Below are positions 1,370-40,627 of a stretch of 64,000 bases of DNA, piece by piece (the stretch's first letter is position 1; every line of letters begins with the position of its first letter). The notes beneath the pieces were generated by a model. That model was not told the DNA's origin, did not search any database, and saw nothing but the letters and a program-made list of their open reading frames with translations. A program made the position numbers and the translations under genes. The stretch lies in NCBI GenBank assembly GCA_947259195.1, contig CAMYLC010000098.1, positions 497 to 64,496 of the forward strand, read 5' to 3'. This DNA is from Thermoanaerobaculia bacterium (lineage in GTDB: Bacteria > Acidobacteriota > Thermoanaerobaculia > Multivoradales > JAHEKO01).

Positions 1370-3265
1370 CTAGCCTCGGCCTTCGCCCCCATAGTCCTGG
1401 CGCAGGGACTCGGTGTCCCAGCCCATATCCCGGGTCTCTCCGGTGTCCTGGAGATCACTGAGCAGCAGTGATTCGAGATCGCCGATGCGCTGCCGGGCGG
1501 TGTGGAAGTAGAGCTTGTCATCGTGGCGCATCTCGGCCAGCTCTCGTAGCGCCGCCTCGTCATGAAGACGGAACTTCTGTGCCGCCCGAACGGCCTGATA
1601 GGCCCTCCGACCCAGCAGGCGCAGCGCCTCGACTCCGGTTCGCAGCCCGGTGTCCAGCTTCTCCCGATAGACGTGCTCGACACCGGCCTCGAGCAGGTCG
1701 TAGGCCTCGCGACGACGTCGCGCACGGACGAGCAGCGTGAGATGCGGAAAGTGCTTTCGTACCGTGTCGACGAGCTCCATCCGCTTGTCGTGCGAATCGA
1801 TGGCCACGACCAATAGCTTGGCGTGCTCGGCGCCTGCCGCACGCAGCAGGTCGGTGCGGCACGCATCCCCGTAGAAGACCTTCATGCCCAACTTGCGAAG
1901 TAGGTCGACGCGATCCGAGTCGTAATCCAACACCGTGGTCCCTACGCCGTTGGCGCGTAGCAAGCGGCCCACGATGCTGCCGAAGCTGCCGAAACCGGCG
2001 ATGATCACCGGGTTCTCCTCGTCGACGACGTCCGATGCGCGCGCCTCTCGCTCCCGGGTGCCGAATCGCGGCTGCACGATCTTCTCATTCAAGAGCATCA
2101 GGATCGGCGTCGCCGCCATCGTCAGCGCCACGACAGCGATCAGAGTCGATGCCAGATCGGCTGACACCACACCCTCTCGCACCGCGAACGACAGCAGTAC
2201 GAAGGCGAACTCTCCGCCCTGGGCCAGCGAGAACGAGAACAGGAGATTCTGATCCATGCTCATCCGAAAGACGCGCCCCAGGACGAGCAGGATCACCCAC
2301 TTGACGACGATCAAGAGCAACATGAGCGACAGCACCAGCCTGAGGTTCCGACCGATCAGATCGAAATCGACCGCCGCACCGACGGCGATGAAGAAGAGTC
2401 CGAGCAGCAGACCCTTGAAGGGCTCGATATCGCTTTCAAGCTCATGGCGATACTCACTGCGCGCCAGGACGACTCCAGCCAAGAAGGTGCCCAGAGCCGG
2501 GCTGACCCCGACCTTGCTCATCAGCATGGCGGTGGCGATGACCAGCAGCAAGGCGGCGGCCGTGAACAGCTCGCGCATGCCGGTGCGGGCGATGAAGCGA
2601 AAGAAGGGCTGCAGCAGGTAGCGACCGAATAGGATGATGACGGCGACCGCGGCGAAGACCACCAGCGTCTCGGTCCAGCCGGGAAGACCCTCAACCCAGG
2701 TGGCAGCGTGACTGCCCTCGTCTGCAGCATGCCGGGCCTGCCTTGCAGTTGCCAGGAGCGGCAGGATGGCGAGGATCGGAATTACCGCGATGTCCTGGAA
2801 GAGCAGCACCGAAAACGCGCTCCGGCCGCCAGCGGTCCTCAACAGGCCCTTTTCGCTTAAGGTCTGCAGGACGATGGCGGTCGACGAAAGAGCCAGGGAC
2901 AGACCGATCGCAAGAGCCGGCCGCCAAGCGAGCCCGAATAGCACGCCGATGACTGCCAGAATGATGGTCGTCACAGCGACCTGTGAGCCGCCGAGCCCCA
3001 GAATCGGCGCCCGCAGGCTCCAGACTCGGGCCGGCTCGAGCTCGAGGCCGATCAGGAAGAGCATCAGAACCACCCCGAACTCGGCGAAGTGCAGGACGTC
3101 CTGCCCTTCCTCGCCAACCAGGCCTAGGACGAAGGGACCGATGATGACCCCGGCAAGCAGATAGCCCAGCACCGAGCCCAGGCCCAGGCGCTTGGCGATC
3201 GGCACCGAGACCACGGCTGCTGCCAGGTAGATCAAGGCCTGGAGGAAGAAGCCTTCGCCGTACAT
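1370..3265 (-). CDS. kefC: glutathione-regulated K+ efflux antiporter, KefB/KefC type (CPA2 family with KTN domain)
   Basis: Start taken at ATG 3263-3265 (MYGEGFFLQALIYLAAAV...), which overlaps the upstream stop by 1 nt (TGATG). A multi-TM CPA2 core is followed by the Rossmann motif VIIAGFGSFG. The longer 759-aa ORF extension is Arg/Gly-rich junk. Confidence 0.85.
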   Translation of the reverse strand: MYGEGFFLQALIYLAAAVVSVPIAKRLGLGSVLGYLLAGVIIGPFVLGLVGEEGQDVLHFAEFGVVLMLFLIGLELEPARVWSLRAPILGLGGSQVAVTTIILAVIGVLFGLAWRPALAIGLSLALSSTAIVLQTLSEKGLLRTAGGRSAFSVLLFQDIAVIPILAILPLLATARQARHAADEGSHAATWVEGLPGWTETLVVFAAVAVIILFGRYLLQPFFRFIARTGMRELFTAAALLLVIATAMLMSKVGVSPALGTFLAGVVLARSEYRHELESDIEPFKGLLLGLFFIAVGAAVDFDLIGRNLRLVLSLMLLLIVVKWVILLVLGRVFRMSMDQNLLFSFSLAQGGEFAFVLLSFAVREGVVSADLASTLIAVVALTMAATPILMLLNEKIVQPRFGTREREARASDVVDEENPVIIAGFGSFGSIVGRLLRANGVGTTVLDYDSDRVDLLRKLGMKVFYGDACRTDLLRAAGAEHAKLLVVAIDSHDKRMELVDTVRKHFPHLTLLVRARRRREAYDLLEAGVEHVYREKLDTGLRTGVEALRLLGRRAYQAVRAAQKFRLHDEAALRELAEMRHDDKLYFHTARQRIGDLESLLLSDLQDTGETRDMGWDTESLRQDYGGEGRG

Positions 3266-3882
3266 CAGACACCCTCCCCTTCGACCCGCAGCACGTCGTC
3301 GAGGCTCCAGTTGAGGCGCTGATGCTGGGGAACAGTCTCCCAGTCCACCTGGTCCTCGCGAATTGCCTCTAGCAGACGTCGATAGTCGGCGGCGTGGGAG
3401 CGAATCTCTTCGCCGATCATGCCAAGGGTGCCATGCACGACAAAGGGTGGCAGGTACTCCACACCGCACAGGCGGAAGGTCTGCTCGAGCGGAGCCAGGA
3501 ACTGACGCATCGTGAAGCGGTTGAGTCCTTCGGGCGCATAGGCCTGCTCCCGACCGCCCGTGGTGACGACGCTCAGAGCCTGCTTGCCATGCAGCAGCTT
3601 GCCTTCCGAGCCATAGGCCCACCCATGTTCCAGCACGAGATCCTGCCACTCCTTGAGCATCGCCGGGGTGCTGTACCAGAAGAAGGGGTGCTGCATGACG
3701 ATCATGTCGTGCTCGACCAGGAGGTTCTGCTCCCGGCGCACATCGATGTCGAACTCGGGATAGACCTCGTAGAGATCATGGAACGTCACCCCGGGCAGAT
3801 CGCGCACAGCCGCCGCCAGCTCCCGATTGACTCGCGACTTCTCCAGCGCCGGGTGGGCGAATAGAACCAGAATCCTGCTCAT
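3265..3882 (-). CDS. KefF/KefG-type flavodoxin-like NAD(P)H oxidoreductase (Kef ancillary subunit)
   Basis: MSRILVLFAHPALEKSRVNREL...MQHPFFWYSTPAMLKEW is typical of the KefF/KefG/MdaB family. The gene sits directly upstream of, and is translationally coupled to, the Kef antiporter. GAGGAA Shine-Dalgarno (SD) before ATG 3882. Confidence 0.85.
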   Translation of the reverse strand: MSRILVLFAHPALEKSRVNRELAAAVRDLPGVTFHDLYEVYPEFDIDVRREQNLLVEHDMIVMQHPFFWYSTPAMLKEWQDLVLEHGWAYGSEGKLLHGKQALSVVTTGGREQAYAPEGLNRFTMRQFLAPLEQTFRLCGVEYLPPFVVHGTLGMIGEEIRSHAADYRRLLEAIREDQVDWETVPQHQRLNWSLDDVLRVEGEGV

Positions 3883-4034: not shown

Positions 4035-5012
4035 CTACCGCACGAGGTGGGTGTCTTCGTTGACCGAGACCCAGTTGTACCAGAAGGTGTCGAAACCGGT
4101 GAGCTGTTTGGCCCCCACTGCGTCTCCCGCTCTCACGCACGCCAAGAGATCCTTGGTCTTCTTGCTTTCGGCCACTAGAGATGTCGGCACGATCCATCCT
4201 TGGGTCGATTCGAAGATCGAGGCCTTCTTGCCGCGGTACAGCAGCAGTCGCTTGTCGCCCCAGCCCTCGACTTCGAGAACTGCACCCCCCGCAAAGGCGG
4301 TGTGGGGCACGGCGTAGGGCTCGTCGCCCCACCAAAAGGAGTAGATGGAATCCTTCGGCGCCAGGCGCTGATCATCGATCTTCAGATCGCGAAAGGTCCC
4401 TTCGGAAGCGAAGTAGTTGTCATAGGGGTTGTTGTCGATGTGCTCCGCACCGTCCACCGACAGCACCAGGGTGTTGGGGTGGCGCTGCCGCCAGTTCTTC
4501 CAGGTGGCCTTCTCGCCCTCGGGAAGCTCAACCAGGTCGGTGCCGTCCAACTCCCCGCCAATGGCATCAGATGTCATGATCGACCACCAGCTGTCGGTCT
4601 CGCGGTCGCGCATGACCAGAGAGGCGTCCATTAGCGCTCCCGAGGCTTCGAAGTTGAGCTCTTTGTCGCCTAGTTTGCGGTCGTAGACTACGGCCGTGTT
4701 GGCCAGGGGTCACCAGACCGCCGCAAACGACTTCTCGCCGATCTGGTCGTTGACCACCTCGTGCCGGTTGAGCAGATTCAAACTGTAAGCGCGAGTCTGT
4801 CCGTCGATCTCCACTCCCAGCACCCACGCATCGTCGGCGATCTCCGCTTTGTCGGCCGTAACGAACTGTGGATTGGAGATGGCGGCGATCTTGCCCCGCT
4901 CGAGGATTTGCTCCACCCCCTCCGGCAACTCCTCGGCCAGGGCGATACCACCCAGCCCCACTCCGAGGCTCAGCAGGGGCAGCACCGTCAGATTGCGTTT
5001 CACTCTTTCCAT
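4035..5012 (-). CDS. exported DUF3179-family protein interrupted by one in-frame TGA (4710-4712); candidate selenocysteine codon, or a pseudogene
   Basis: ORFs 4710..5012 and 4035..4631 are in the same frame. Read-through gives ...AYSLNLLNRHEVVNDQIGEKSFAAVW[TGA]PLANTAVVYDR...LVMRDRETDSWW..., colinear with the DUF3179 core. Signal peptide at the N-terminus. AAGGAG SD lies 7 nt before ATG 5012. Confidence 0.6.
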
Positions 5013-5159
5013 GAGCGGTCTCCTTGACTCGTCAGACAGCAGTTACGGCTGCGCTGCTCGAGTAGATCTGAAGGGTTGCCTATTCCTACTCCGGAGCGGG
5101 GTGACAGCTAAGCGGCCAAAAGGCGCCATTGACGGCCCAAAACGAACATCTTAGCGGTC

Positions 5160-5265: not shown

Positions 5266-5757
5266 TCAGTCGACGTGCTCCGAGTACTCCTCTCCGTGGT
5301 AGTGAAGGACGTGCTCGCCGATCCATTTCGCCAGAATCTCCTCGGGCATTGGCTCCAGGGTTACAGTGATGTCCTGTCCCTTACCGTCACGCTCGATGCC
5401 GAAGGTCACCGTGCGACTGGGGCGAAACGCCTCGTACTCCTGCTTGAGCTTCTCTTTGTTGGCCTCGTCATAGGGCACGCCATTGAGCGAGGTCAGAAGG
5501 TCACCTTTCTTCAAGCCCGCATCTTCCCCCGGACTATTGGGAGAAACCCACGTCAGTACGACGCCTCCGGCCTCCTCGCTCGCCTCCATGTTGATACCGA
5601 CCCAGCCCCGCTCAGAGAACTGCTCCTTCATCGCTCGAACACACTCCTCGACTTCATTCGAGCACTGCTGACCTTTCTTGCTCTCATCCCCTGCGAAGAC
5701 CGATGGGGCCACCAGAATCGCTGTCGCTGCCATTAGGGGAAGCCATGTCTTTCTCAT
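5266..5757 (-). CDS. secreted PDZ-domain protein
   Basis: Signal peptide MRKTWLPLMAATAILVAPSVFA. PDZ-like core GWVGINME...VVLTWVSPNSPGEDAGLKKGDLLTSLNG. Confidence 0.7.
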   Translation of the reverse strand: MRKTWLPLMAATAILVAPSVFAGDESKKGQQCSNEVEECVRAMKEQFSERGWVGINMEASEEAGGVVLTWVSPNSPGEDAGLKKGDLLTSLNGVPYDEANKEKLKQEYEAFRPSRTVTFGIERDGKGQDITVTLEPMPEEILAKWIGEHVLHYHGEEYSEHVD

Positions 5758-7944: not shown

Positions 7945-8009
7945 GGCCGAAGGATACTAGGTAGGCGACGAATCAGAGCGTTCCAATAACTTCCGCAATA
8001 CGCATTTGA

Positions 8010-8038
8010 TTGACAGATTCCCTGTTTTTGAGTACTCT
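8010..8038 (+). promoter_or_regulatory. sigma70-like promoter for the DtxR-FeoA/feoB operon
   Basis: TTGACA (8010-8015), a 17-nt spacer, then TACTCT (8033-8038), inside the only AT-rich island of the 7945-8086 intergenic region. Confidence 0.45.
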
Positions 8039-8086
8039 AAAAATCGACGCCTGGCGGTACTTCCACTCGACACTCCCCGAACGATC

Positions 8087-9121
8087 ATGATCAATCCGTA
8101 CCTCGCACTTCTCTGGGTGATCGCCCTGACGCTCACGGCCATCTATCTGCTGCGGCCCGATCGCGGCCTGCTGTGGAGGCTCCTTCGGGCCTCGAAAGCG
8201 ACCGAGCGGGTTCTCGTCGAGGATGCACTCAAGCACCTATTCGACTGTGAATATCGGCAACAGGTGGGCACGCTTCAGAGCCTGTCGGGCGTTCTGACGA
8301 TCTCGGGCAACCGCGCTGCCGAGCTGCTGGAGAGCCTCGAAGTGCAAGGGCTCATCTCCTCTGGCGAAGGTGGTTACCTGCTAACCACTGAAGGCCGTAG
8401 ACACGCCTTGCAGGTGATCCGGATCCATCGCCTCTGGGAGCGTTACTTTTCCGACGAGACGGGGCTGGAACCTCGAGCCTGGCATCAGGAGGCGGAGCTC
8501 CGGGAGCACACCACGACGCCTGCCGAAGCGGAAGCCCTCGCCGCCAAGATGGGCAATCCTCCGTTCGATCCACATGGCGACCCCATACCAACAGCCAGTG
8601 GCGAGATGCCGCCACCGCAGGGCAGCCCCCTGACCGAGCTGCCGGTCGGCGAGCTGGCCGAGATCGTCCACATCGAAGACGAGCCCGAGGCGGTCTACGC
8701 CCAGTTGTTGGCCGAAGGCTTGCACCCAGGAATGCGGGTTCGGGTCAACGAATCGACTCTCCGACGCATTCGATTCAAAGCCAACGCCGAAGAGATCGTC
8801 CTGGCACCAGTACTGGCAGCGAATCTCTCGGTGGCCCCGTTGCCCGAAGAGGTCGAGATGCCTGGGCCCTTCGAGCGGCTTTCCGAGCTGCCGCTGGGCC
8901 GGCAGGCTCGAGTCGTCGCCATCGCACCGACCCTGCGCGCCCCCGAGCGACGACGGATGCTGGATCTCGGCCTGGTACCGGGCACGGTTGTCGAAGCCGA
9001 GCTCCGCAGCCCGGGTGGAGATCCAACCGGCTACCGCATCCGCGGCGCCGTCATCGCCCTGCGACAGGACCAGGCCGATCAGATCCAGATCGAGCGGCTC
9101 GAAGCGAGTGCGGCCTCATGA
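8087..9121 (+). CDS. DtxR/MntR-family metalloregulator with an N-terminal hydrophobic helix, an SH3-like domain and a C-terminal FeoA domain
   Basis: [10 protein letters not shown]...ELREHT...[10 protein letters not shown] matches the DtxR dimerisation/metal-site region. Two FeoA/SH3-like segments follow ([15 protein letters not shown]... and [15 protein letters not shown]...[13 protein letters not shown]...). ATG 8087 is preferred because the TTG at 8006 lies inside the predicted promoter. Confidence 0.8.
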
Positions 9122-11376
9122 GCCACAGTGCAGCTGATTGCGCTACCTGCCCGGCCCATAGCCTGCCCAATCTGGTCAAGCTGGGCGTGGACATGGAGAA
9201 CTGGGACTACGTGGTGGCCCTGGCTGGCAATCCCAACACCGGCAAGAGCACGGTCTTCAACGCCCTGACCGGCTTGCGTCAGCACACGGGGAATTGGCCC
9301 GGCAAGACGGTGGCTCGTGCCGAAGGCGGCTTCTCGATCGGCGAGGCACGCTACAAGCTCGTGGATCTGCCCGGCACCTACTCCCTTCTCTCCACCAGCG
9401 TGGATGAAGAGATAGCCCGCGATTTCATCCTCTTCGGCAAGCCCGACGTCACCGTCGTTGTGGTCGACGCCACCCGGTTGGAGCGCAACTTGAACCTGGT
9501 ACTCCAGGTCCTGGAGATCACCGATCGCGCGGTCGTCTGCCTCAACTTGATGGACGAGGCGAAGCGCAAGGGGCTGGAGATCGACCACCGCCGCCTGGCA
9601 CGCGATCTAGGGGTGCCGGTAGTCCCCACGTCGGCCCGCTCCGGAGAGGGTCTAGACGAGTTGAATCGGGTCATCGCCGAGGTCGCCAGCGGCCAGCTGA
9701 AAAGCAAGCCACGAAGGGTAGGCAGCCAGTCTTCCTCCCTCAAACGCGCCGTCCGGCAACTGACCGTGGAAGTCGAGAAAGCTCATCCGGGGCTGCCCAA
9801 CGCCCAGTGGGTGGCCCTGCGTCTACTGGATGGCGACGCGAGAATCGCCGAGGCCTTCCGCAACGGAGAGTTGGGCGAGCTCCAAGAGCCGCATCTCCTC
9901 TCAGAGGGTGCGGCCGATGCCTCTTCGCTGGCCGCCTCGTTTCCAGATACCGAGCGACCCGATACTGAGGACATCTTTGCTCTCGCGGCGAGCCTGCGTT
10001 GGCAAGTGGGAAAGGATTTCCACCAGGAGTTGATGGAATTGATCTACACGGAGGCGGCGCGTCTGGCCGATCGCGCCGTCCACCGCACTGGTGAAAAACC
10101 CCGCTTCGACCTGGACCGGACGATCGACCGTCTGGTGACCAGTCGCCTGCTCGGATTTCCCCTCATGTTGGCGCTGCTGACGCTGGTCTTCTGGATCACC
10201 ATCGCTGGCGCCAACGTGCCCTCCAGGATGCTAGCGACACTGTTCCTGGACACGATTCATCCCGCCCTGAAGACTGCAGCGGCCGCCATCGGAATGCCAT
10301 GGTGGTTGGACGGGTTGCTCATCGACGGCATGTACCTGGCAACGGCCTGGGTGGTCAGCGTCATGCTGCCGCCGATGGCCATCTTCTTCCCGCTGTTCAC
10401 CCTGTTGGAGGACTTCGGCTATCTGCCACGCGTCGCCTTCAATCTGGACAGGACCTTCAAACGGGTCGGAGCCCACGGCAAGCAGGCGCTGACCATGGCC
10501 ATGGGCTGGGGCTGCAACGCTGCGGCCATCGTCTCGACTCGTATCATCGACAGTCCGCGAGAGCGGCTCATCGCCATCATCACCAATAACTTCGCTCTTT
10601 GTAATGGGCGCTGGCCGACCCAGATCTTGATTGCCTCGATCTTCATCGGCGGATTGGCGCCGGCTTACCTCGCCGGTCTCATCTCGGCTCTGGCAGTGGT
10701 GGCCGTAGCGGTTCTGGGAGTGGTCTTCACCTTTGCCACTTCCTGGCTGCTGTCCCGTACCGTGCTGCGCGGCGAGGTTTCTACCTTCAATCTGGAGCTT
10801 CCTCCTTACCGACCACCGCGCTTCTGGACCACCGTCTACACCTCGATCATCGATCGAACGCTGGTCGTTCTCTGGCGTGCAGTGATCTTCGCGTTGCCGG
10901 CCGGAGCAGTCATATGGCTACTCTCCAACATCCAGATCTCAGGAGTCAGCCTGGCACAATACATCATCGGTGCGATCGAGCCCTTCGGATTGCTCGTGGG
11001 CTTGAGCGGCATCATTCTCTTGGCCTACATCATCGCCATTCCAGCCAACGAGATCGTAATCCCCACCATCCTCATGCTCACCGTGCTGGTGACCGGCATG
11101 GAGGGCGTCGGTGGCGGCACCGGAGTCATGTTCGAGCTGGACAGCCTGGAGGCCACGAGCCAACTATTGCAGGCAGGGGGCTTCACCCTGCTCATGGCCG
11201 TGAACCTGATGCTCTTCAGCCTGGTCCACAACCCCTGCTCCACCACGATCTACACCATCTACCGGGAAACCCGTAGTGCCAAGTGGACCACGATCTCGGC
11301 ACTGCTGCCTCTCGGCATGGGTTTCGTCCTCTGCTTCGTGGTGACCCAGATCTGGCGCATCGTCGCGGGCTCCTGA
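9118..11376 (+). CDS. feoB: ferrous iron transporter FeoB
   Basis: G-domain [20 protein letters not shown] and DLPGTYSL, followed by the polytopic membrane domain. ATGA start/stop overlap with the upstream regulator. An alternative start is ATG 9193. Confidence 0.95.
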
Positions 11377-13899: not shown

Positions 13900-14739
13900 T
13901 CAAGAAACGAGCTGCAGGGTCATGCGGCGCACGACCTGTGCGAGGGCGAATCTTCGGTACTCGGCGGTCGAGCGCACGTCGTCGATGGGCCTGACGGCAT
14001 GAGCTGCCAGGTGACCGGCCAGGTCGGCAACATCGGCCTTTGCGGCCCGTCCCACCATCGCCTCTTCGACCTCCGTGAGCCGCAAGGGAATCTCGGCCAC
14101 GCTGCCTGCAGCCAGCCGATACTCGGTGATCAGGTCGTCACTGACGCTGGCCAAAAGGGCCACCACAACCTTGCTGATGGCCTGTGCTTCCCGAGTCCCG
14201 ACCTTGCGGAAGAACTGCGTCGCGCCTTGCGGTGGTCTGGGTAGCTGTACCCAACCGATGATCTCGCCGGGGCCGAGCGCTGTTTGTCGATAGCCGACAT
14301 GAAAGTCCCGGTAGGGCACTGTGCGCTTCCCCTCGGGACCCACCAGGACGATCTGTGCGTCCAGCACCAGAAGCACGGGTAGGGAATCTCCGGCTGGGCT
14401 GGCGTTGGCCATGTTGCCACCGAGGCTGGCGCGGTTCTGGATCTGCCAACCGCCGATTTTCGAGGCCGCTTCTGCCAACGCTGGGAAGCTCTGCCGCACA
14501 TCTGGGGAGTCGCGGATCTCGGAGAAGGCCGTGACAGCGCCGATCTCCAGGGTCTCACCGCGCCATCGAAAACCACGCAACTCCGAGACGCGCTGTAGGT
14601 CGAGGACCCCTGGCAGGTCGAGACGGTCTTCCGGCTCACTTACCATCAGATCGGTGCAGCCCGCCAGTGGTCGCAGATCCGGATGCTCCCCCAGACGCAG
14701 CAGGGTCTCCTCTAGTGATCTCGGAGCAAAGGCCTTCAC
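13900..14739 (-). CDS. Mo-hydroxylase FAD-binding (medium) subunit, CoxM/XdhB/YgfM type
   Basis: GTG start (14737-14739) in a GTGA overlap with the 2Fe-2S gene stop. LAGCTDLMV, IQNRASLGGNMANASPAGD and the C-terminal STAEYRR motif are typical of FAD_binding_5/CO_deh_flav_C. The upstream part of the 387-aa ORF is junk. Confidence 0.85.
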   Translation of the reverse strand: MKAFAPRSLEETLLRLGEHPDLRPLAGCTDLMVSEPEDRLDLPGVLDLQRVSELRGFRWRGETLEIGAVTAFSEIRDSPDVRQSFPALAEAASKIGGWQIQNRASLGGNMANASPAGDSLPVLLVLDAQIVLVGPEGKRTVPYRDFHVGYRQTALGPGEIIGWVQLPRPPQGATQFFRKVGTREAQAISKVVVALLASVSDDLITEYRLAAGSVAEIPLRLTEVEEAMVGRAAKADVADLAGHLAAHAVRPIDDVRSTAEYRRFALAQVVRRMTLQLVS

Positions 14740-15191
14740 TTGTCCCCCGCTCCGCGGTCGAAGGCTCTGTGGATGCCTTCGTAGCCGGTGCACCGACAGA
14801 GATTCCCAGCCAGGGCCACCTGCACCTCTCGGCGGGTGGGACGGGGGTTGTCGCGCAGCAGCGCCAAGGCCGTGACGATGATGCCAGGGGTGCAAGCACC
14901 GCATTGCACTCCACCGTCGTTGACGAAGCCTGCGAGAAAGGCTCGGGCCTCGGCGGCTGCGAGACCTTCCACCGTCTCGATCGTCGCCGCCTCGCATTGG
15001 ATCAGGGGAACCAGGCAGGAGAGCACTGGCTCGCCATTCATGAGCACTGTGCAAGCACCGCACTCACCCTCGCCACAGCCCTCCTTGGTGCCGATGAGAT
15101 CGAGCTCGTCTCGGAGGACGTCCAGGAGGCGAGCCATGGGATGGCCCTCGACGGCCACAGCCTTGCCGTTGATGACGATCTCGCTCTTCAT
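14736..15191 (-). CDS. Mo-hydroxylase [2Fe-2S] small subunit (CoxS/XdhC type)
   Basis: CGEGECGACTV and QCGACTPG...CRCTGY cluster motifs. ATGA overlap with the large-subunit stop. Confidence 0.95.
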   Translation of the reverse strand: MKSEIVINGKAVAVEGHPMARLLDVLRDELDLIGTKEGCGEGECGACTVLMNGEPVLSCLVPLIQCEAATIETVEGLAAAEARAFLAGFVNDGGVQCGACTPGIIVTALALLRDNPRPTRREVQVALAGNLCRCTGYEGIHRAFDRGAGDK

Positions 15192-17491
15192 CTCTTCGCT
15201 CCCCTATCGCCCTGCGGGTCTTTCGGCTCCGAGGGCACCCACCGACGCGCCGAGGACAGGGCCAGCAAGCGCTCAGGGGTGGCCGGTATCGCATCGACCT
15301 CGATGCCGGTCGCGTTCTCCACCGCCGAGACAGCGGCCGGGGCGCCACCGTCCATCGGCAGCTCACCCACGCCCTTGGCGCCAAAAGCGCCCCCTTTCCA
15401 AGGCCTCTCCAGCAGATGCACCTCCATCTCGGGACTGTCCCGGATCGTCGGAATGATGTACGTGGCGAGCCGGTCGTTGAGGTATCGCCCCGCCTCGAGC
15501 TTGACCTCTTCCATCAGCCCCCATGCCACCGCCTGCAAGGTCCCGCCCTCGACCTGGCCGATACATAGCTTCTCGTGCAGCACTCGGCCTACCTCGCAGA
15601 CCGCGGTGACCTTTGTCGGGCTCACCTCGAGGGTGTCGGGGTCGACCTCGACTTCCACCACATCGGCCCCGAAAGCGTAGGTTGGATAGGCCACGCCCTG
15701 GTAGGTCTCCTCATCGAAGACCTGCCACTCCGGAGGCTCGTGCTGGCGCGAGATCACAAGGGGCTCCATCGCCTCGAAGTAGCGACTGGAAACCTCTCGA
15801 AACGGCCGACCCTTGCCGTTCTCACCTCGCACGAGGCCCCCTTCTACGGTGTAACCCGATCCATCCTTCTGGTGGTCAGACCACCAGGCCAGGACTCTGT
15901 CCCGAATCTCCCGCACCACGTAGGCGACCTCGCTGCCCACCACCATCGAAGTGCGGGAAGCGACGCTGGGCCCGGAATCGGGAACCCGAGAGGTGTCCGG
16001 AGCGGCCAGCACCACATCCGCGGGCAGCAAGCCGCTAGCTTCGGCGGCCATGAGGGGAAAGACCGTGTCACACCCCTGCCCCATCTCCACCGCTGCTGTG
16101 CGCACCTCGACCCGTCCATCCTCGAGCAGGGCGCCTTCGATAACCGACTGCAGGACCCGTTCACCGTTACCGGTGAATCCGGCCCCATGGAAATAGAGGC
16201 TCAGCCCAATACCATGCGCCGAGTCTCCGTCACCTCTGGCGATGCGCTGCGTTTCCAAACGCTGCCAACGCTCTTTGAAGTCGGTCTCCTGCACCGCCTT
16301 CTCGAGACAGAGGCGAGCCGAACAGCTCTCGTCCATCTGCTGACCGGTTGGCAGCCTGTCGCCTTCTTCCAACACGTTTCGCAGTCGGATCTCCAATGGG
16401 TCGAAGCCTAGGCGCCGACCAATCCGGTCCATCTGTCGTTCCATGGCGAACTGTACCTGTGGCGCTCCAAAGCCGCGAAACGCGCCGTTGGGCGGCGTAT
16501 TCGTGCGCAGTACTCTGCCCCGGATGTGAACGTTGGGGCAACGGTAGGGGCCGGCGGCATGGAGCACCGCCCGCGACAGGACCACGGGTGAGAGTGTCCT
16601 GTAGGCCCCTCCGTCCAGCACCACGTCGATCTCCATCGCCTGAAGACGTCCCTCGGCATCGACTCCAACTCGATGGGTCACCATCGAAGGGTGCCGCTTG
16701 GTGGTCCCGACAATATCCTCGTGGCGGTCGTAGGCGATGCGCACCGGATGGCCACAGGCCCTCGCGAGGAGCGCTGCGTGCAGGGCGATCACGCTCGGGA
16801 AGTCTTCCTTGCCGCCGAAGCCACCGCCCACCGGTGTCGCCCTCACGACGACTTTGTCGGATTCCAGCGGCAAGGCGTGGACCAGCGATCGATGCACGAA
16901 GTAGGGGCACTGCATGGAGCCCTCGACGACCAGAGTGCCGTCGGCCTCCCACCCGGCGCTCATGACCTGGCACTCGATGTAGATGTGCTCCTGGTGTCCC
17001 GTGCGGTAGGTACCCTCCACCAGCAGGTGCGCTCTTTCGAGCTCCTGCTCGGCCTCGCCGCTCTTCAGCTCCAGGCTGTAGAGGGGTTCCTGCCTTCCCG
17101 CTGTCGAGAGATCCAGGGTGGGCTCGAGAGGCTCGTAGTCCACCTCGATAGCCTTTAGGGCCTGGCGAGCAGCAAGCCTCGTCGAGGCAGCCACGACCGC
17201 TACCGGCTCTCCCACGTGGTGCACGAAATTCGCTGCCAGCAACGGCCACTCGTCGTCGAGGAGCTGTACTCCATTCGGTCCCGGCAAATCGCCTGCGGTC
17301 ACACAGACAGCTCCAGCCGGCGCTCGTTCGGGATGCCATAGCAGTCGCCGAATGCGCGCATGGGGATACGGGCTGCGCAGCGTCGCACCGTGCCAGATCC
17401 CTTGCGCTGGCAGGTCGTTGGCATAGCGCAGGGTCCCGTCCACCTTCGCGGCGCCGTCGGGGCGTGGCGGGCTCGAGCCGAGAAGGGTCAC
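15188..17491 (-). CDS. Mo-hydroxylase molybdopterin-binding large subunit (xanthine dehydrogenase/aldehyde oxidase family)
   Basis: 767 aa with GGGFGGKEDF and RGFGAPQ motifs and an a/b-hammerhead N-terminus. The GTG start sits in a GTGA overlap with the hydantoinase stop. Confidence 0.95.
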   Translation of the reverse strand: MTLLGSSPPRPDGAAKVDGTLRYANDLPAQGIWHGATLRSPYPHARIRRLLWHPERAPAGAVCVTAGDLPGPNGVQLLDDEWPLLAANFVHHVGEPVAVVAASTRLAARQALKAIEVDYEPLEPTLDLSTAGRQEPLYSLELKSGEAEQELERAHLLVEGTYRTGHQEHIYIECQVMSAGWEADGTLVVEGSMQCPYFVHRSLVHALPLESDKVVVRATPVGGGFGGKEDFPSVIALHAALLARACGHPVRIAYDRHEDIVGTTKRHPSMVTHRVGVDAEGRLQAMEIDVVLDGGAYRTLSPVVLSRAVLHAAGPYRCPNVHIRGRVLRTNTPPNGAFRGFGAPQVQFAMERQMDRIGRRLGFDPLEIRLRNVLEEGDRLPTGQQMDESCSARLCLEKAVQETDFKERWQRLETQRIARGDGDSAHGIGLSLYFHGAGFTGNGERVLQSVIEGALLEDGRVEVRTAAVEMGQGCDTVFPLMAAEASGLLPADVVLAAPDTSRVPDSGPSVASRTSMVVGSEVAYVVREIRDRVLAWWSDHQKDGSGYTVEGGLVRGENGKGRPFREVSSRYFEAMEPLVISRQHEPPEWQVFDEETYQGVAYPTYAFGADVVEVEVDPDTLEVSPTKVTAVCEVGRVLHEKLCIGQVEGGTLQAVAWGLMEEVKLEAGRYLNDRLATYIIPTIRDSPEMEVHLLERPWKGGAFGAKGVGELPMDGGAPAAVSAVENATGIEVDAIPATPERLLALSSARRWVPSEPKDPQGDRGAKR

Positions 17492-19010: not shown

Positions 19011-21644
19011 ATGAGCCCGAGGCAGCTGGTCGAGTTTTCGCTCAACGGTCGCTGGCAATCGCTGGCCATTCGGCCAGATGAGAGCCTTCTGGAGACCCTG
19101 CGCAATCAGTGCAGGATCCTCTCCACCAAGGATGGCTGCCAGCCACAGGGTCAATGTGGCTGTTGCCTGGCACTGATCGACGGCCTGCCAAAAGTCTCCT
19201 GTGCCGTGCCGACAAGCCGCGTTCAGGACAAGGAGATCCTCACCCTGGAGGGTCTACCCGAGGAGGAGCGCCGGCTGATCGGGCGCTGTTTCGTGGCCGC
19301 GGCCGGGCTGCAATGTGGCTACTGCATTCCCGGATTCGCACTCCAGGCCAAACACCTCCTGGATCACAACCCTTCTCCCAGCCGTGCGGAGATCGCCCGT
19401 GCCATCAACGGTCACCTGTGCCGCTGCACCGGCTACGTCAAGATCATCGATGCCATCGAGCTCCTGGCGACGGCGCGGCGGGGAGAGGGTGAGCCCGAGC
19501 TGGATCGCAGCGGCGGCGTCGGGTGCTCACTGGCCCGGCACGGAGGCGAAGAGATGACGCTCGGGGACCGGCCCTACGTGGACGACCTGCAGAGGACGGG
19601 GATGCTGCACGGTGCCGTGGTTCTCTCGCCGCACGCTCGGGCCAGGGTCGTGCGGATCGACACCTCCGCGGCGCGAGCCACCCCTGGAGTCGTGGCCGTA
19701 GCCACCGCCGAAGATGTGCCGGGAGACCGCTGGGTGGGTCTTCTCTACGGCGATTGGCCAGTGTTTGTCGCCGAAGGAGAAGAAGTGCGATATGTCGGCG
19801 ACGTGCTGGCCGCCGTAGCGGCGGAGGACGAAGCCACTGCGCGACAGGCGTCGCAGTTGGTGAAGGTGGAGTATGAAGTCCTGGAGCCGGTACTGGAGCC
19901 CGTCTGGGCACTCGAGGAGAGCGCCCCGCAGGTCAACCCAAGGCACGAAAATCTCCTCTCCGAGACCTTCGTGCAGCGAGGCAACGCGGAAGAGGCCCTC
20001 GCCGCCAGTGCCCACACGGTGAGCGGCACCTGGCGGACCCAGCGGATCGAGCACCTTTATCTGGAACCCGAAAGCGCCCTCGCCGAGCCCCTGCCGGACG
20101 GACGCCTGAAACTCTATTCCCAGGGACAAGGGATCTTCGATGATCGACGCCAGGTAGCCTCCGCTCTGGGCTTCGACCCGCAGGAACTGGAAGTCGAGCT
20201 GGTCCCCAACGGCGGCGCCTTCGGGGGCAAGGAGGACATGTCGATTCAGGCCCAGACCGCGCTGTTGGCCCGAATGACCGAGCGGCCCGTAAAGATCGCG
20301 CTCAACCGCGAAGAGTCCATCCGACTCCACCCCAAGCGCCACCCGATCACGATGCGCTACAAAGTAGGCTGCGACGCTGAAGGCAGGTTGACGGCTGTCG
20401 AGGCGGACATGATTGGCGATACCGGTGCCTACGCTTCGGTCGGTTCCAAGGTCCTCGAGCGAGCTGCCGGACACGCATGTGGACCCTACCGGGTGCCCAA
20501 CGTCTCCATCGTGGCTCGAGCCGTGATGACCAACAATCCGCCGTGCGGAGCCATGCGTGGGTTCGGCGCCAACCAGGCTCACTTCGCCATCGAGGGGGCC
20601 CTCGATCTGCTGGCCGCCAAGGTGGGCCTCGATGGCTGGGAGATGCGGTGGCGCAACGCGCTGGAAGTGGGAGACGCCACCACCACTGGACAGGTCCTGG
20701 AGAAGTCGGTGGGTCTCAAACAGTGCCTGCTGGAGGTCAAAGAACTGTACATGCAAGCCCTTGCTGCCGGGCGTGCCGTAGGCATCGGCTGCGGCATCAA
20801 GAACAGCGGCATCGGCAACGGGGCCAAGGAGTGGGGCCGAGCCCGACTCGTGGTCGAAGAGGACAGCAGCGTATCGCTCTACAACGGCTATACCGAAATG
20901 GGTCAGGGGCTGCTCACGGTCCTGATCCAGATTGCCACAGAGATTACCGGCCTGGCTCCTGCGACCTTCGTTCCCAAAGTCGATTCGACCTTCGAGCTGG
21001 ATTGCGGGCAGACGACGGGCTCGCGCGCGACGCTCTTTGGTGGCTTGGCAGTGGAGAAGGCCGCCAAGGGGCTCCGAGGTGATTTAGCCAAAGGCAGGCG
21101 CCTCGCGGATCTGGTCGGGAGCATCTATGAAGGCGAGGTCCTGATCGATGACACCACAGCACCCGGTGCGGAATCCGGCCGAATCAAGACCCACACAGCG
21201 TACGGCTTCGCGGCGCAGGTCTGCATCCTCGACACCGAGGGACGGGTGCAGCGAGTCGTGGCCGCCCACGACGTCGGCAGGGCGATCAATCCCGCCCTCT
21301 GCGAAGGGCAGATCGAAGGCTCGGTGCACATGGGCGTGGGCTACGCCCTCACCGAGGAGCTACCTTGCCCGAACGGTATGCCTGCCACCTTCAAGCTCCG
21401 CGAGCTCGGAGTTCTCCGCGCCCGGGACATGCCCGAGGTCGAGGTTCTTCTCGTTGAGGACCACGAGCCCGAGGGACCCTTCGGCGCGAAAGGGGTCGGC
21501 GAGATCGGCCTGGTGCCGACGGCCGCTGCGGTGGCAGGTGCACTCGAAGCGTACGACGGCATTCGCCGGTATACCCTGCCCATGAAGGATTCGCCAGCCG
21601 CCCAGGCCATGTCGGTCGGCAGGATTCGCGGACACCGATCGTGA
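19011..21644 (+). CDS. fused [2Fe-2S] + molybdopterin Mo-hydroxylase without an FAD domain (XdhD / D. gigas MOP architecture)
   Basis: N-terminal CQPQGQCGCC and LQCGYCIPGF...CRCTGY, then the Mo domain with GGAFGGKED and MRGFGANQ. 877 aa. Confidence 0.9.
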   Translation: MSPRQLVEFSLNGRWQSLAIRPDESLLETLRNQCRILSTKDGCQPQGQCGCCLALIDGLPKVSCAVPTSRVQDKEILTLEGLPEEERRLIGRCFVAAAGLQCGYCIPGFALQAKHLLDHNPSPSRAEIARAINGHLCRCTGYVKIIDAIELLATARRGEGEPELDRSGGVGCSLARHGGEEMTLGDRPYVDDLQRTGMLHGAVVLSPHARARVVRIDTSAARATPGVVAVATAEDVPGDRWVGLLYGDWPVFVAEGEEVRYVGDVLAAVAAEDEATARQASQLVKVEYEVLEPVLEPVWALEESAPQVNPRHENLLSETFVQRGNAEEALAASAHTVSGTWRTQRIEHLYLEPESALAEPLPDGRLKLYSQGQGIFDDRRQVASALGFDPQELEVELVPNGGAFGGKEDMSIQAQTALLARMTERPVKIALNREESIRLHPKRHPITMRYKVGCDAEGRLTAVEADMIGDTGAYASVGSKVLERAAGHACGPYRVPNVSIVARAVMTNNPPCGAMRGFGANQAHFAIEGALDLLAAKVGLDGWEMRWRNALEVGDATTTGQVLEKSVGLKQCLLEVKELYMQALAAGRAVGIGCGIKNSGIGNGAKEWGRARLVVEEDSSVSLYNGYTEMGQGLLTVLIQIATEITGLAPATFVPKVDSTFELDCGQTTGSRATLFGGLAVEKAAKGLRGDLAKGRRLADLVGSIYEGEVLIDDTTAPGAESGRIKTHTAYGFAAQVCILDTEGRVQRVVAAHDVGRAINPALCEGQIEGSVHMGVGYALTEELPCPNGMPATFKLRELGVLRARDMPEVEVLLVEDHEPEGPFGAKGVGEIGLVPTAAAVAGALEAYDGIRRYTLPMKDSPAAQAMSVGRIRGHRS

Positions 21645-25842: not shown

Positions 25843-25898
25843 GGACATACAATCAACAGCGGTAACCGCTACCATGGGTGAGGTAGCAGGTAGGCACA

Positions 25899-26321
25899 AT
25901 GCCCAGTCGACGGACACTCCTCTTCATCGACGGCTTCGTCAACCTGGTCCTGGGGATCCTTTTGCTCTTCTTCCCAGACTGGTTGGTCTCGGCACTCGGC
26001 ATTCCGACTGCCGAATCGGCTTTCTACCCCAACCTGCTCGGTGCCGTGTTGACCGGTATCGGAATCGCCCTGCTGGTCGAGCGATCTCGGGCGCCCTCGG
26101 CCTCGAACGGCCTCGGTCTCATCGGCGCGGTCGCCATCAACCTCTGTGCCGCCACGGTCCTGGCCGGTTGGCTCGTCTTCGGCGAGCTCGACCTGCCACG
26201 ACGCGGGGTGTTCTTTCTCTGGGGGATCGTATTGCTGGTCATGGGACTGGGTGTGGTCGAGCTCCAACGGGAACTCAACGTCGGCGAGCAGGTCGAGCCA
26301 AAGCCCAAGGAGGTGAGGTGA
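25899..26321 (+). CDS. small 4-TM membrane protein, hypothetical
   Basis: 140 aa with four clear hydrophobic helices and no recognisable motif. Confidence 0.45.
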   Translation: MPSRRTLLFIDGFVNLVLGILLLFFPDWLVSALGIPTAESAFYPNLLGAVLTGIGIALLVERSRAPSASNGLGLIGAVAINLCAATVLAGWLVFGELDLPRRGVFFLWGIVLLVMGLGVVELQRELNVGEQVEPKPKEVR

Positions 26322-26511
26322 TGGGTACGCTGGCAGAGCGCAACAAAGACATCGCGCTGCAGGCATTCGCGCTATTGGAGGCCGGTCGGTTCGATGAGCT
26401 GTCTGACTTTTGAACGACCGATCGCACGTCATATACTCACCTGCAACTTTCGCCGCACCCTAGAACCACAGGCTTACTGAAACGCCTGTTTCGACAGAAG
26501 AGGAGAACTTC

Positions 26512-27462
26512 ATGAGTGACAAGAAGATCATTGCCGTCGTCGGAGCGACCGGTGCGCAGGGTGGTGGCTTGGTGCGCGCCATCCTCGACGACGAGAGCGG
26601 GCCCTTCACGGCGCGCGCCATCACGAGAAATGTCGAATCGGCGAAGGCGCAAGAGCTCGCCAGGCTGGGCGCCGAGGTCGTCGCCGCCGACATCGACGAC
26701 CCGCAGAGTCTCGAAAGTGCCTTGGACGGCGCCTATGGCGCCTACTTCGTGACCTTCTTCTGGGAGCACTTCTCGCCGGAGAAGGAGATGGCCCACGTCC
26801 GAGCCATGGCCGAGGCCGCCAAGCACGCCGGGCTCCAGCACGTTGTCTGGTCGACCCTCGAAGACACCCGTAATTGGGTACCGCTCGACGACGACTCGAT
26901 GCCGACGCTGATGGAGGGCTACAAGGTGCCGCATTTCGATGCCAAGGGTGCGTCCAACCGTTTCTTCACCGAGCTCGGCGTTCCCGTGACCTTCCTGCTG
27001 ACGTCCTTCTACTGGGACAACTTCATTTACTTCGGAATGGGACCGCAGAAGGGTCCTGACGGCAACTACGCCATCGCCTTTCCCATGGATGACAAGTTGT
27101 TGCCGGGAATCGCCGCCGAAGACATCGGCCGAGCCGCCTATGGAATCTTCAAGCAGGGGCCCGAGCTCATCGGCAAAACCGTGGGGATCGCCGGCGAGCA
27201 CCTGTCGGGCACGGAGATGGCCGAGGCTCTCGGCAAGGCTCTGGGACTCGAGGTGGCCTACAACTCGGTGCCGCCCGAGGTCTACCGCAGCTTCGACTTC
27301 CCTGGCGCGGAAGACCTGGGCAACATGTTCCAGTTCAAGCGCGACTTCAACGACTACTACTGCGGTGTGCGCAAGATCGACGAGACTCGGGCTCTCAACC
27401 CGAGCCTGCAGACTTTCGGCGACTGGCTCGCCCGCAACGCGAGCCGCATCCCGATAGAGTAG
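26512..27462 (+). CDS. NmrA-family NAD(P)-binding protein
   Basis: IAVVGATGAQGGGLV Rossmann motif with NmrA-like length and C-terminal region. GAGGAGAA SD. Confidence 0.9.
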   Translation: MSDKKIIAVVGATGAQGGGLVRAILDDESGPFTARAITRNVESAKAQELARLGAEVVAADIDDPQSLESALDGAYGAYFVTFFWEHFSPEKEMAHVRAMAEAAKHAGLQHVVWSTLEDTRNWVPLDDDSMPTLMEGYKVPHFDAKGASNRFFTELGVPVTFLLTSFYWDNFIYFGMGPQKGPDGNYAIAFPMDDKLLPGIAAEDIGRAAYGIFKQGPELIGKTVGIAGEHLSGTEMAEALGKALGLEVAYNSVPPEVYRSFDFPGAEDLGNMFQFKRDFNDYYCGVRKIDETRALNPSLQTFGDWLARNASRIPIE

Positions 27463-28879: not shown

Positions 28880-29821
28880 TCAGGGCACGATATGGGTGCC
28901 AGCACGGCCGTGAATGGCATCCTCGAGAAGGTCGGGTCGGGTGATGATCACCTCCTCACCGCCATGCTCTATGAAGTCGATCGCTGCCTCGATCTTGGGC
29001 TTCATACTGCCGGGCGGAAAGTGCCCTTCCTCGAGGTAGCCGCGGGCCTCGGCGACGGTCATTCGGTCGATTTCCCGCTGGTCGGGCTGCCCGAAGTTCA
29101 GCGCCACCCTGTCCACCGCCGTCGAGAGGATGAACTTCTCGGCGCCGAGATTGTTGGCCAAAAGGCACGACGCCCAGTCTTTGTCGATAACGGCACCCAC
29201 TCCCTCGAGGCTGCCGTCGTCCCGACGAACTACCGGGATGCCGCCGCCGCCGACCGCCACCACGACGATATCGTTCTCCAGCAGCATCTTGATGGCCGGC
29301 TCCTCGATGATTTCCAGCGGGCGAGGTGACGCGACGACCCGCCGCCAACCTCGGCCGGCGTCCTCGCGCATCACCCAACCCTCTTTGTCTTGATGCTCGC
29401 GCGCAGCCGCTTCGCTGTAGAAAGGACCGATCGGCTTGGAAGGACTCTGGAACCCCGGGTCAGCGGCATCGACGACGGTCTGGGTCACGATCGCCACCAC
29501 GCCCTTCTCGATACCCTGGCGGCGCAGCTCATTGTCCAAAGTCTGGCTGATCTGATACCCGATCGCGCCCTGGGTGTCGGCGCCACAACTGTCCAGTGGC
29601 ACCTGGTGCAGCACCTCCTTGGCAAGCTCGGAGCGCAACAGGATGAAGCCGACCTGGGGACCGTTGCCGTGTGTAATGACGACACGGTAACCCTCGGCAA
29701 CGATATCGGCGATGCGATCACTGGTCTCGCCACAGGCCCGGTACTGATCGAAAACCGTCGAGTGCTCGGCATCCTTGATCAGGGAGTTTCCACCGATTGC
29801 AATGACCACCAGCTTCTCCAT
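28880..29821 (-). CDS. arcC: carbamate kinase (ArcC/YqeA type)
   Basis: VIAIGGNSL, VITHGNGPQVG and AVDRVALNFG are classic carbamate-kinase motifs. 313 aa. Confidence 0.95.
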   Translation of the reverse strand: MEKLVVIAIGGNSLIKDAEHSTVFDQYRACGETSDRIADIVAEGYRVVITHGNGPQVGFILLRSELAKEVLHQVPLDSCGADTQGAIGYQISQTLDNELRRQGIEKGVVAIVTQTVVDAADPGFQSPSKPIGPFYSEAAAREHQDKEGWVMREDAGRGWRRVVASPRPLEIIEEPAIKMLLENDIVVVAVGGGGIPVVRRDDGSLEGVGAVIDKDWASCLLANNLGAEKFILSTAVDRVALNFGQPDQREIDRMTVAEARGYLEEGHFPPGSMKPKIEAAIDFIEHGGEEVIITRPDLLEDAIHGRAGTHIVP

Positions 29822-29879: not shown

Positions 29880-30024
29880 AGCCCCACGGCATCTGGTGGA
29901 GATCACCCGCCGTCTCAGGCCGTCCTCGCTCGTCGCTCCTCGACAACATGCAAGGTTGCCTCCGGGGCTCCTGCCTGCGGGTGACCAGATCCGACAGACG
30001 CTTTCCACAATCTGCTCGCGCGGT

Positions 30025-30035
30025 CATGAATCATG
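30025..30035. promoter_or_regulatory. 11-bp palindrome CATGAATCATG, candidate operator (site 2)
   Basis: Same palindrome as site 1. It ends 10 nt upstream of a TATTAT -10-like hexamer (30046-30051), ahead of the pyrB-like gene. Confidence 0.3.
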
Positions 30036-30117
30036 CGAGCTGAGCTATTATGCCGCTTCCAGGCCCATTCAAGGGTCTGGATTCTACGACCCCCTGATTC
30101 GGGAGGAGGCTTTTTCA

Positions 30118-39583: not shown

Positions 39584-40627
39584 TTGCGTATCACGGACTC
39601 CCAAGCCCTCTTCCGGCCGACCTGCCGTCTGGTGATGTACTGCGTCCTGATCGGTCTGCCTGGAGCGCTGGCTGCTCTGGCCTTCGATCTCCTTGTCAAC
39701 TGGGCCCAGAAGCTTCTTCTCGGTGAAATCGGCCACTACCCGAGTCCAGAGATCACCGCGACGGAGATGCGGATCTCCGTTCCGCGAGAGGTTCCGAGGC
39801 TCAGGTTGCCCGTGGCAACCACGCTCGGTGGCCTACTCGGCGGCTGGCGGGTCTATCGCTGGGCACCCGAGGCCGAGGGACATGGCACCGACGCCGCTAT
39901 CGCCGCCTACCACCGCCGCGGGGGTGAGGTCCGTGGACGCATCCCATTCATCAAGGCAGTAGCCTACGCGTTGACGATCGGATCCGGAGGAGTCGCGGGG
40001 CGAGAGGCACCCACAGCACAAATCGCCGTGGGGTTGGGAACCTCGTTGGCCTGCTGGGCCGGGCTGCGGGGCCAGGAGCGCCGATCTCTGCTCCTGGCCT
40101 TCATGGTCCAACGATCCCTGACCGCCGGCAGCCGATACCCGACGCTCTACCATTCACAGGTCCCGACGCGCGAGGATTCTCCACTGCGTCGCGGCGTATT
40201 TGTCCGGCGAACGTTGGAGTTGCTCGACAAGGATGGTGTCGAGACCAGTCAGTTTCGGCTGCCCCGCCTGGTGAACCTGCTGCGTTTTGGAGAGTCGATC
40301 CCCATAGCGGTCAGCGAAGGTCAGTTGGTGGCAGTGATCGTCGGCAAAGGCTCTGAGCCGGCCGACCGAACCGTCGTGGAGACGCACGGCAAGCTCGAGG
40401 GAGTGACCGCGGTCGCGGTGCTGCGCGAAGGAGATCTGGTGGTGCCCCGCGGGGATACACGGTTTCAGGAAGGAGATCAGCTGTTGGCGGTGACCGCCTT
40501 GGCTGTCGACAGGGATTTGAGTCGCCTTGCCATGGCAAGGCGGTCGGACGATGAACCCGAGGATTCGCCGGATCTGGCATCTGAGGGCCCCATCGATCTC
40601 GATTCTGGGAGGGAGAAGCAACGATGA
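39584..40627 (+). CDS. ClC chloride-channel remnant (N-terminal ~170 aa) joined in-frame to the post-TM linker and a TrkA-C domain; likely non-functional
   Basis: EAEGHGTDAAI and IGSGGVAGREAPTAQIAVG (GREGP-type filter region) are followed directly by TLYHSQVPTREDSPLRRG, which normally follows the last ClC helix, and then a TrkA-C-like beta domain. TTG start; ATG 39635 is an alternative. Confidence 0.55.
   Translation: MRITDSQALFRPTCRLVMYCVLIGLPGALAALAFDLLVNWAQKLLLGEIGHYPSPEITATEMRISVPREVPRLRLPVATTLGGLLGGWRVYRWAPEAEGHGTDAAIAAYHRRGGEVRGRIPFIKAVAYALTIGSGGVAGREAPTAQIAVGLGTSLACWAGLRGQERRSLLLAFMVQRSLTAGSRYPTLYHSQVPTREDSPLRRGVFVRRTLELLDKDGVETSQFRLPRLVNLLRFGESIPIAVSEGQLVAVIVGKGSEPADRTVVETHGKLEGVTAVAVLREGDLVVPRGDTRFQEGDQLLAVTALAVDRDLSRLAMARRSDDEPEDSPDLASEGPIDLDSGREKQR

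Follow-up and report, generated by a model that had tools for sequence, protein, structure and literature searches.

The 64,000-nucleotide stretch of Thermoanaerobaculia DNA analyzed here (contig CAMYLC010000098.1; "the window" throughout) carries on its minus strand a gene of the DUF3179 family with one in-frame TGA codon, which is very probably read as selenocysteine (Sec). The frame runs from ATG 5012-5010 to TAG 4037-4035, and the TGA at 4712-4710 is its sole internal stop. An earlier note on this DNA, made from the letters alone, had described the split frame, an AAGGAG 7 nt before the ATG and no further stop, and all of its coordinates and strings were correct. When cysteine is put at the TGA, the 325-amino-acid product matches PF11376 (DUF3179) with 193.5 bits (E 7e-57, cutoff 27), and the match covers profile positions 3-292 of 292, continuing across the TGA, so that the colinearity of the read-through product with DUF3179, which had been proposed earlier, holds over the entire domain; NCBIfam models gave no match to this product. 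The peptide around the TGA reads ...FAAVW-[TGA]-PLANTAVVYDRK..., and full-length homologs carry W-C-P-L-A with the Cys at that column, in agreement with the suggestion that the TGA replaces the Cys of a CPLC motif. The protein begins with a probable signal peptide, recognized by inspection of the translation, and hydrophobic N-terminal leaders also start the Cys-form homologs; cleavage of the leader and an extracytoplasmic location of the protein are probable on this basis. In all of the public contigs that were inspected, gene callers have broken it into two pieces, of 95-107 and 198-240 amino acids, as commonly happens to genes for selenoproteins. A scan of the window for further genes read through a TGA gave no credible candidate and turned up antisense artefacts only.

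To assess the column occupied by the TGA in relatives, we searched about 5.8 billion proteins, recovered hundreds of relatives, and retrieved the DNA of 80 loci in species-representative genomes; most of these loci belong to Thermoanaerobaculia or to other Acidobacteriota, and the remaining ones to Krumholzibacteriota, Latescibacterota, KSB1, Calditrichota, Gemmatimonadota, Nitrospira and Polyangiaceae metagenome-assembled genomes (MAGs). A further 80 loci were taken from metagenomes with a query built from Cys forms; 78 of these could be scored and two could not. Among these homologous loci, at 45-88% protein identity, the column holds TGA in 148/158, TGC or TGT in 9/158 and TGG in 1/158. The genome loci contribute 78 TGA, one TGC (L038) and one TGG (L078), with none unscorable, and the metagenome loci 70 TGA, eight TGC or TGT and no TGG. 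In every one of the 78 TGA-bearing genome loci the frames are open on both sides of the TGA and the architecture is that of the gene in the window; the median identity to the window is 68% over the 75 amino acids before the TGA, compared with 55% over the roughly 220 amino acids after it. The closest dozens of relatives (55-87% identity) are annotated as proteins of 190-240 amino acids that start just past the TGA position, and the more distant full-length relatives (46-56% identity) have W-C-P-L-A, with Cys at the exact TGA column. A TGA position shared by 148 of 158 loci is far beyond chance. Because the TGA column is conserved, both flanks are open and conserved, and the called internal starts vary between relatives, these comparisons indicate that the UGA at codon 101 is translated, and such a pattern could not result from a nonsense mutation, from a fault in assembly or from two separate genes.

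Individual loci show further variation at this column and in copy number. The locus with TGG (L078:3001-3915, Acidobacteriota MAG CBDDCF010000036.1) encodes Trp in the context FAAVW-W-PLANAGVVY, and its gene is otherwise intact; this could be a real change from TGA to TGG or an assembly or polishing artefact. The acidobacterial MAG CAVQNG01 has two TGA-containing DUF3179 copies (L001 and L064, on contigs 29 and 3), with 81% and 76% identity to the window.

Downstream of the UGA lies a small hairpin of the type expected for a selenocysteine insertion sequence (SECIS). Its sequence is CGGCCGUA-GUC-UACGACCG (4696-4678), with a stem that extends in the window from C4696-G4678 through U4690-A4684; positions are numbered here from the U of the UGA, which is 1. 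The stem comprises 7-8 bp with one tolerated internal mismatch, the loop is 3-5 nt long, and the loop begins at position 24-25, that is, 20-21 nt past the UGA. This is the same hairpin, with GU in its loop, that had been pointed out previously, and it is the one that is conserved. In a gap-free alignment of 60 nt around the TGA from 79 Sec-form loci (alignment A2), 87.8% of the stem cells are paired, as against 27-52% in controls with the 3' strand shifted by 1-3 nt, and the covariation score of 0.115 compares with 0.038 in shuffled alignments and was reached by 0/500 shuffles. When the genome and metagenome sets are pooled into 134 distinct Sec-form sequences, 88.6% of the stem cells are paired, as against 60.9% in eight Cys forms, seven of which (7/8) have C in place of G at position 18. 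Compensatory pairs in the 134 Sec forms are seen at 18-34 (G-C in 117, U-A in 5) and at 21-31 (C-G in 128, U-A in 3), and the tolerated internal position 20-32 is C-G in 48, G-C in 3, C.A in 64 and G.A in 19. Some of the compensatory changes alter amino acids on both strands together, as in L059, where a change of Ala to Gly is matched by one of Asp to Ala. The third-codon entropy within the stem is 0.66, 0.19, 0.11 and 0.19 bit at codons +5, +6, +9 and +10; flanking and loop codons vary freely, at 1.0-1.9 bit. The compensatory changes and the frozen synonymous sites show conservation of the hairpin as an RNA structure, and only in the UGA-bearing genes. The comparison of orthologs that the earlier note had proposed as a check, for TGA or TGC at the column and for a conserved downstream hairpin, thus gave TGA in nearly all of the loci and a hairpin kept in the Sec forms.

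The GU of the loop is present in 134/134 distinct Sec forms and coincides with positions 1 and 2 of a conserved Val codon; because this codon fixes it, the loop GU is not independent evidence. Positions 24 and 27 (window 4689 and 4686; A2 columns 30 and 33) also covary, as C-G in 76, G-C in 21, A-U in 13, A.C in 23 and A.A in 1. These are the third positions of the two Val codons flanking the GU, and the signal is purely synonymous; the base counts suggest a cross-loop pair that would leave only the GU unpaired. The bacterial SECIS (bSECIS) model describes a loop of 3-9 nt, an upper stem of 4-16 bp, a loop starting with G[G/U] and 16-37 nt between the UGA and the loop (PMC13188914), and the hairpin falls within this description in its loop, its stem, its G[G/U] start and its distance from the UGA. 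Other pairings were rejected. A hairpin that includes the UGA is preferred by the unconstrained minimum free energy fold of the window, and across the relatives it does no better than shuffles (213/500). The alternative 8-bp pairing GUUUGCGG/CCGCAAAC (4728-4721 with 4680-4673), which had been put forward as bracketing the TGA, is present in the window but not conserved, with 8/8 pairs in only 3/79 relatives and mostly 5/8.

The earlier note was wrong in taking DUF3179 for a family not yet established as containing selenoproteins. Two reviews by Zhang et al. (PMC9312934, 2022; PMC13188914, 2026) include DUF3179/PF11376, with the motif UxxC/T, among the selenoprotein families of prokaryotes and credit Zhang and Gladyshev 2007 (PMC1976440) for it, and the NCBI name of the relatives P0025 and P0116 is 'DUF3179 domain-containing (seleno)protein'. 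The gene is a further member of a known selenoprotein family with a minor motif variant, UxxA, and represents neither a new family nor a new recoding mechanism. Of the description "candidate new selenoprotein", the second word has no support, the family having been catalogued already, but the selenoprotein reading itself is strongly supported by the conservation of the TGA, of both halves of the protein and of the hairpin.

We propose that the locus is a single intact gene, that its product is an exported selenoprotein of the DUF3179 family, and that the UGA is read as Sec by means of the SECIS hairpin. Translation would start at ATG 5012, and at UGA 4712-4710 it would not terminate, as the hairpin at 4696-4678 in the mRNA would act as a bacterial SECIS element and recruit SelB carrying Sec-tRNA(Sec); Sec would then be put in at residue 101, and translation would go on to TAG 4035. 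Both the dependence on SelB and Sec as the inserted residue are predicted. We favor this selenoprotein reading because the PF11376 match spans the TGA, because the TGA and both halves are conserved and the hairpin covaries, and because the hairpin fits the bSECIS model in a family already catalogued and named as containing selenoproteins. The splitting of the gene by gene callers and the selenium-dependent xanthine dehydrogenase cluster of the window also speak for it.

Several observations weigh against it. The window hairpin alone has an energy of -6.3 kcal/mol (z -1.9), above the bSECIS limit of -7.5 kcal/mol or lower; in relatives the energy ranges from -5.2 to -13.2 kcal/mol, with a median of -6.8. 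When the hairpin is forced within the UGA plus 57 nt, the window reaches -11.1 kcal/mol and 71/79 sequences reach -7.5 kcal/mol or lower, with an extra lower stem that is without covariation support. Single folds show such a lower SECIS stem, in which the codons immediately following the UGA pair with the variable codons 12-15; exchanging the 3' flanks among sequences cost no stability (p = 0.65), and we rejected this stem. Folded without constraint, the 53 nt that begin at the UGA favor a different structure, which shows no covariation, and the RNAalifold consensus has only 3 bp, owing to the tolerated C.A mismatch. Several stem bases, like the loop GU, are also fixed by conserved amino acids, and Rfam gave no relevant match at gathering or permissive thresholds. 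The genes selA, selB, selC and selD were not found within the 64-kb window, nor were Sec-decoding genes found in the flanks of relatives or tRNA-Sec in the window or in 32 related loci, and experimental incorporation of selenium was not found in the literature for any DUF3179 member. Taking these points into account, we put the probability of the selenoprotein reading at about 90%.

The same TGA could also arise without any recoding. The earlier note had offered a very fresh pseudogene as its alternative, in which a Cys codon (TGC or TGT) had suffered a nonsense mutation to TGA, truncating the protein after 100 residues. One substitution separates these codons, automatic gene callers take TGA as a stop, and the window alone cannot separate a nonsense mutation from a Sec codon; the relatives can, since the same TGA recurs in 148/158 loci across many phyla at identities down to 45% with the frames intact on both sides, the upstream 75 amino acids are strongly conserved, and the RNA hairpin is conserved in TGA forms only. 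The random extra stops or frameshifts of a decaying gene are not seen in the TGA-bearing relatives, and with the TGA conserved in about 150 independent assemblies and purifying selection on both halves, the pseudogene is effectively refuted. A sequencing or assembly error in a true TGC or TGT codon, for which a single-base difference would suffice, has practically no probability left either, given that the gene is split in the same way in L163, an independent contig from a strain with 99% identity (ENA ERZ25039508), and in L081, a Logan assembly, and that about 148 independent assemblies carry the TGA. Public gene calls, which show two open reading frames (ORFs) in every contig inspected, could be taken at face value as two separate products, a 100-amino-acid exported N-terminal protein and a C-terminal protein translated from an internal start. 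This arrangement is very improbable: both pieces form one Pfam domain (profile 3-292), the Cys homologs are single polypeptides, the called internal starts vary among relatives (MDASLVM..., MVYDR..., MANTAVVY...), there is no conserved start or ribosome-binding site after the TGA, and conservation of the coding frame continues through the 79 nt that separate the TGA from the next ATG.

A different question is which residue the UGA specifies. UGA might be recoded to a residue other than Sec, either to Cys by a tRNA-Sec-like tRNA(Cys) (SelC*) together with SelB, or by a suppressor 'allo-tRNA'. The SelC* tRNA(Cys) is a mimic of tRNA-Sec with a possible role in opal suppression, and allo-tRNAs of Acidobacteria may be nonsense suppressors (PMC5389517); SelB-dependent insertion of Cys would need a SECIS hairpin too, so that the hairpin does not discriminate between the two residues, and the relative L078 has Trp (TGG) at the Sec column. 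Nevertheless, the selC* genes of that study come from Firmicutes, Thermodesulfobacteria, Nitrospirae and Proteobacteria, and none from Acidobacteria (PMC5389517). If Cys were the residue inserted, a TGC codon would serve with no hairpin at all, whereas there are about 16 TGA forms to each Cys form and they keep the hairpin. Together with the cataloging of the family as Sec-containing and the presence of selenium-utilization genes in the window, this makes recoding to a non-Sec residue unlikely.

Position +3 after the Sec, where a second Cys had been expected, is Ala (U-P-L-A) in all 78 genome and in 69/70 metagenome Sec forms, and one metagenomic relative (L139) has Thr instead (U-P-L-T). The Ala, raised before as a caveat, is thus confirmed, but it is a property of the clade and no defect of this gene; Cys and Sec forms of the clade alike have [C/U]-P-L-A, and the clade has no conserved Cys other than the one in the Cys/Sec column. 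Because of the Ala at +3 in both forms and the lack of any other conserved Cys, we infer that the Sec acts alone, probably as a lone nucleophile or as a metal or metalloid ligand rather than within a redox pair of the CxxC type. The nearest Cys homolog of full length (P0025, 56% identical) gave a confident AlphaFold model, mostly beta and with a pLDDT (predicted local distance difference test) of 95.5, in which Cys79 ends strand 72-79 and a short helix (80-82) comes next. The residues H83, E84, N87, D88, E190, H191, D214 and R216 are conserved. Foldseek found no significant match to this model in the PDB (best E 0.05, TM (template modeling) score at most 0.22); the only local match, to the NirD/Rieske-like domain 3c0d_C, has probability 0.89, E 0.29 and 88 columns. 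A Pfam scan with E up to 10 gave no Rieske hit, and a PDB sequence search gave no usable functional analog. As a tentative extension, on which we place rather less than even odds, the U-P-L-A clade might be a functionally distinct 'single-selenol' branch of DUF3179: exported, with a Sec that has no resolving Cys or Thr (for example as a metal or metalloid ligand or lone nucleophile), almost fixed for Sec (about 148 Sec versus 9 Cys forms, in Acidobacteriota and several candidate phyla), and with a SECIS whose cross-loop pair 24/27 would present a two-base GU platform to SelB. Neither such a branch nor such a platform was found described in the literature consulted.

Table 1. Coordinates of the DUF3179 gene, its recoding signals and the other features of the window
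Feature	Coordinates	Strand	Remarks
DUF3179 gene, predicted selenoprotein, complete	4035..5012	minus	325 codons plus stop, predicted Sec at codon 101; one frame, full-length PF11376 match
Shine-Dalgarno-like AAGGAG	5020..5025	minus	7-nt spacer before ATG 5012-5010; read off the sequence
Probable Sec-type (secretory) signal peptide	4935..5012	minus	MERVKRN, hydrophobic stretch, A-L-A; cleavage expected after residue 26
In-frame UGA, codon 101	4710..4712	minus	Predicted to be read as selenocysteine; Cys column of the [C/U]-P-L-A motif
SECIS-type hairpin, 19 nt	4678..4696	minus	Starts 13 nt after the TGA; positions 17-23/24 pair with 28/29-35; C.A mismatch 20/32
Apical-loop GU	4687..4688	minus	Positions 25-26; invariant in Sec forms; loop G25-U26-C27
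True stop codon TAG	4035..4037	minus	End of frame
Small exported PDZ-domain protein	5266-5757	minus	CxxxxxxC pair; directly upstream of the DUF3179 gene
Terminator-like hairpin, 10 bp	5193-5168	minus	After the PDZ gene
Selenium-dependent molybdenum hydroxylase neighborhood	13900-35819		
FAD (flavin adenine dinucleotide) subunit of second XDH-like enzyme	13900-15063		
Second xanthine dehydrogenase (XDH)-like large subunit	15188-17491		
Carbamate kinase	28880-29821		
OTCase-like gene	29896-31071		
YgeW	31079-32290		
Short YgfK-like protein	32287-34398		Matches YgfK positions 4-417 of 1012 only

The selenium-associated gene set that had been noticed in the window is real, but it is a selenium-cofactor molybdenum hydroxylase cluster and not Sec-decoding machinery (Table 1). 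Its central member, at 19011-21644, scores 919 bits against TIGR03311, the selenium-dependent xanthine dehydrogenase, for which the curated cutoff is 830, and the neighborhood also holds two amidohydrolases and two pyridoxal phosphate (PLP) enzymes. The ORFs 25869-26432 and 26437-27201 gave no family hit, and neither YqeB nor YqeC was recognized in this neighborhood. Because the window carries this cluster, the organism handles selenium; the cluster is a separate selenium trait and no proof of Sec decoding. Closer to the DUF3179 gene, the PDZ gene also adjoins it in the closer relatives L162, L163, L166 and L167 but not in L164 and L165; it is the only upstream neighbor that recurs, and a functional partner is not evident.

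The window contains other genes of note. Downstream of the DUF3179 gene on the minus strand (1370-3879), synteny with L163 delimits a KefC-like K+/H+ exchanger at about 1370-3265 and a KefF-like Flavodoxin_2 protein at about 3262-3879, and the two overlap by 4 nt; the program-made ORF 1370-3649 is drawn too long. On the plus strand, the gene at 8006-9121 fuses a DtxR-type iron repressor domain to FeoA and is overlapped by 4 nt by FeoB (9118-11376), an arrangement also found in L162, L163 and L167. The plus-strand ORF 39584-40627 covers only the first 93 of the 346 positions of the Voltage_CLC profile, followed by a TrkA_C domain, and may be a truncated or rearranged chloride-channel gene.

The gene in the window and every relative inspected in public gene calls are split into two 'hypothetical' ORFs, which should be merged into one selenoprotein annotation. 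The approximately 135 distinct sequences provide a large natural alignment of a compact bacterial SECIS that lies over coding sequence, and may be useful for training SECIS detectors. The strong preference of this exported protein for Sec instead of Cys, seen in Thermoanaerobaculia and related lineages, also makes DUF3179 a worthwhile biochemical target.

The catalogued DUF3179 selenoproteins are the nearest known system. They belong to the same Pfam family, have Sec first in a conserved Cys motif with a SECIS-type hairpin just downstream, and have Cys homologs; however, they are listed with UxxC/T, whereas the gene described here and nearly its whole clade have U-P-L-A with neither Cys nor Thr at +3, and this clade is mainly acidobacterial (Thermoanaerobaculia) and not deltaproteobacterial. 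The Cys-form DUF3179 proteins of the same clade (such as P0025, P0040, P0041 and P0052) are 46-56% identical and colinear throughout, with W-C-P-L-A-N and an N-terminal leader, and differ in having TGC or TGT for the TGA and a degraded hairpin. Like the thioredoxin-like CxxC/UxxC selenoproteins, the clade replaces the first Cys of a short motif with Sec, at a junction of a strand and a short helix in the P0025 model, but it has Ala at +3 and its fold is not thioredoxin-like. The SECIS of E. coli fdhF, the reference bacterial SECIS, is likewise a hairpin within the coding sequence soon after the UGA that exposes GU in a small apical loop. Its minimal element is said, in work attributed to Huttenhofer (1996), Liu (1998) and Fourmy (2002), to start 11 nt after the UGA, with SelB reportedly contacting G23 and U24; in comparison, the hairpin described here starts 13 nt after the UGA and has its GU at 25-26. 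Beyond the loop GU the two share no sequence similarity, and the hairpin of the DUF3179 gene has a shorter stem, no identified bulged U, no demonstrated lower stem and a predicted binding by SelB.

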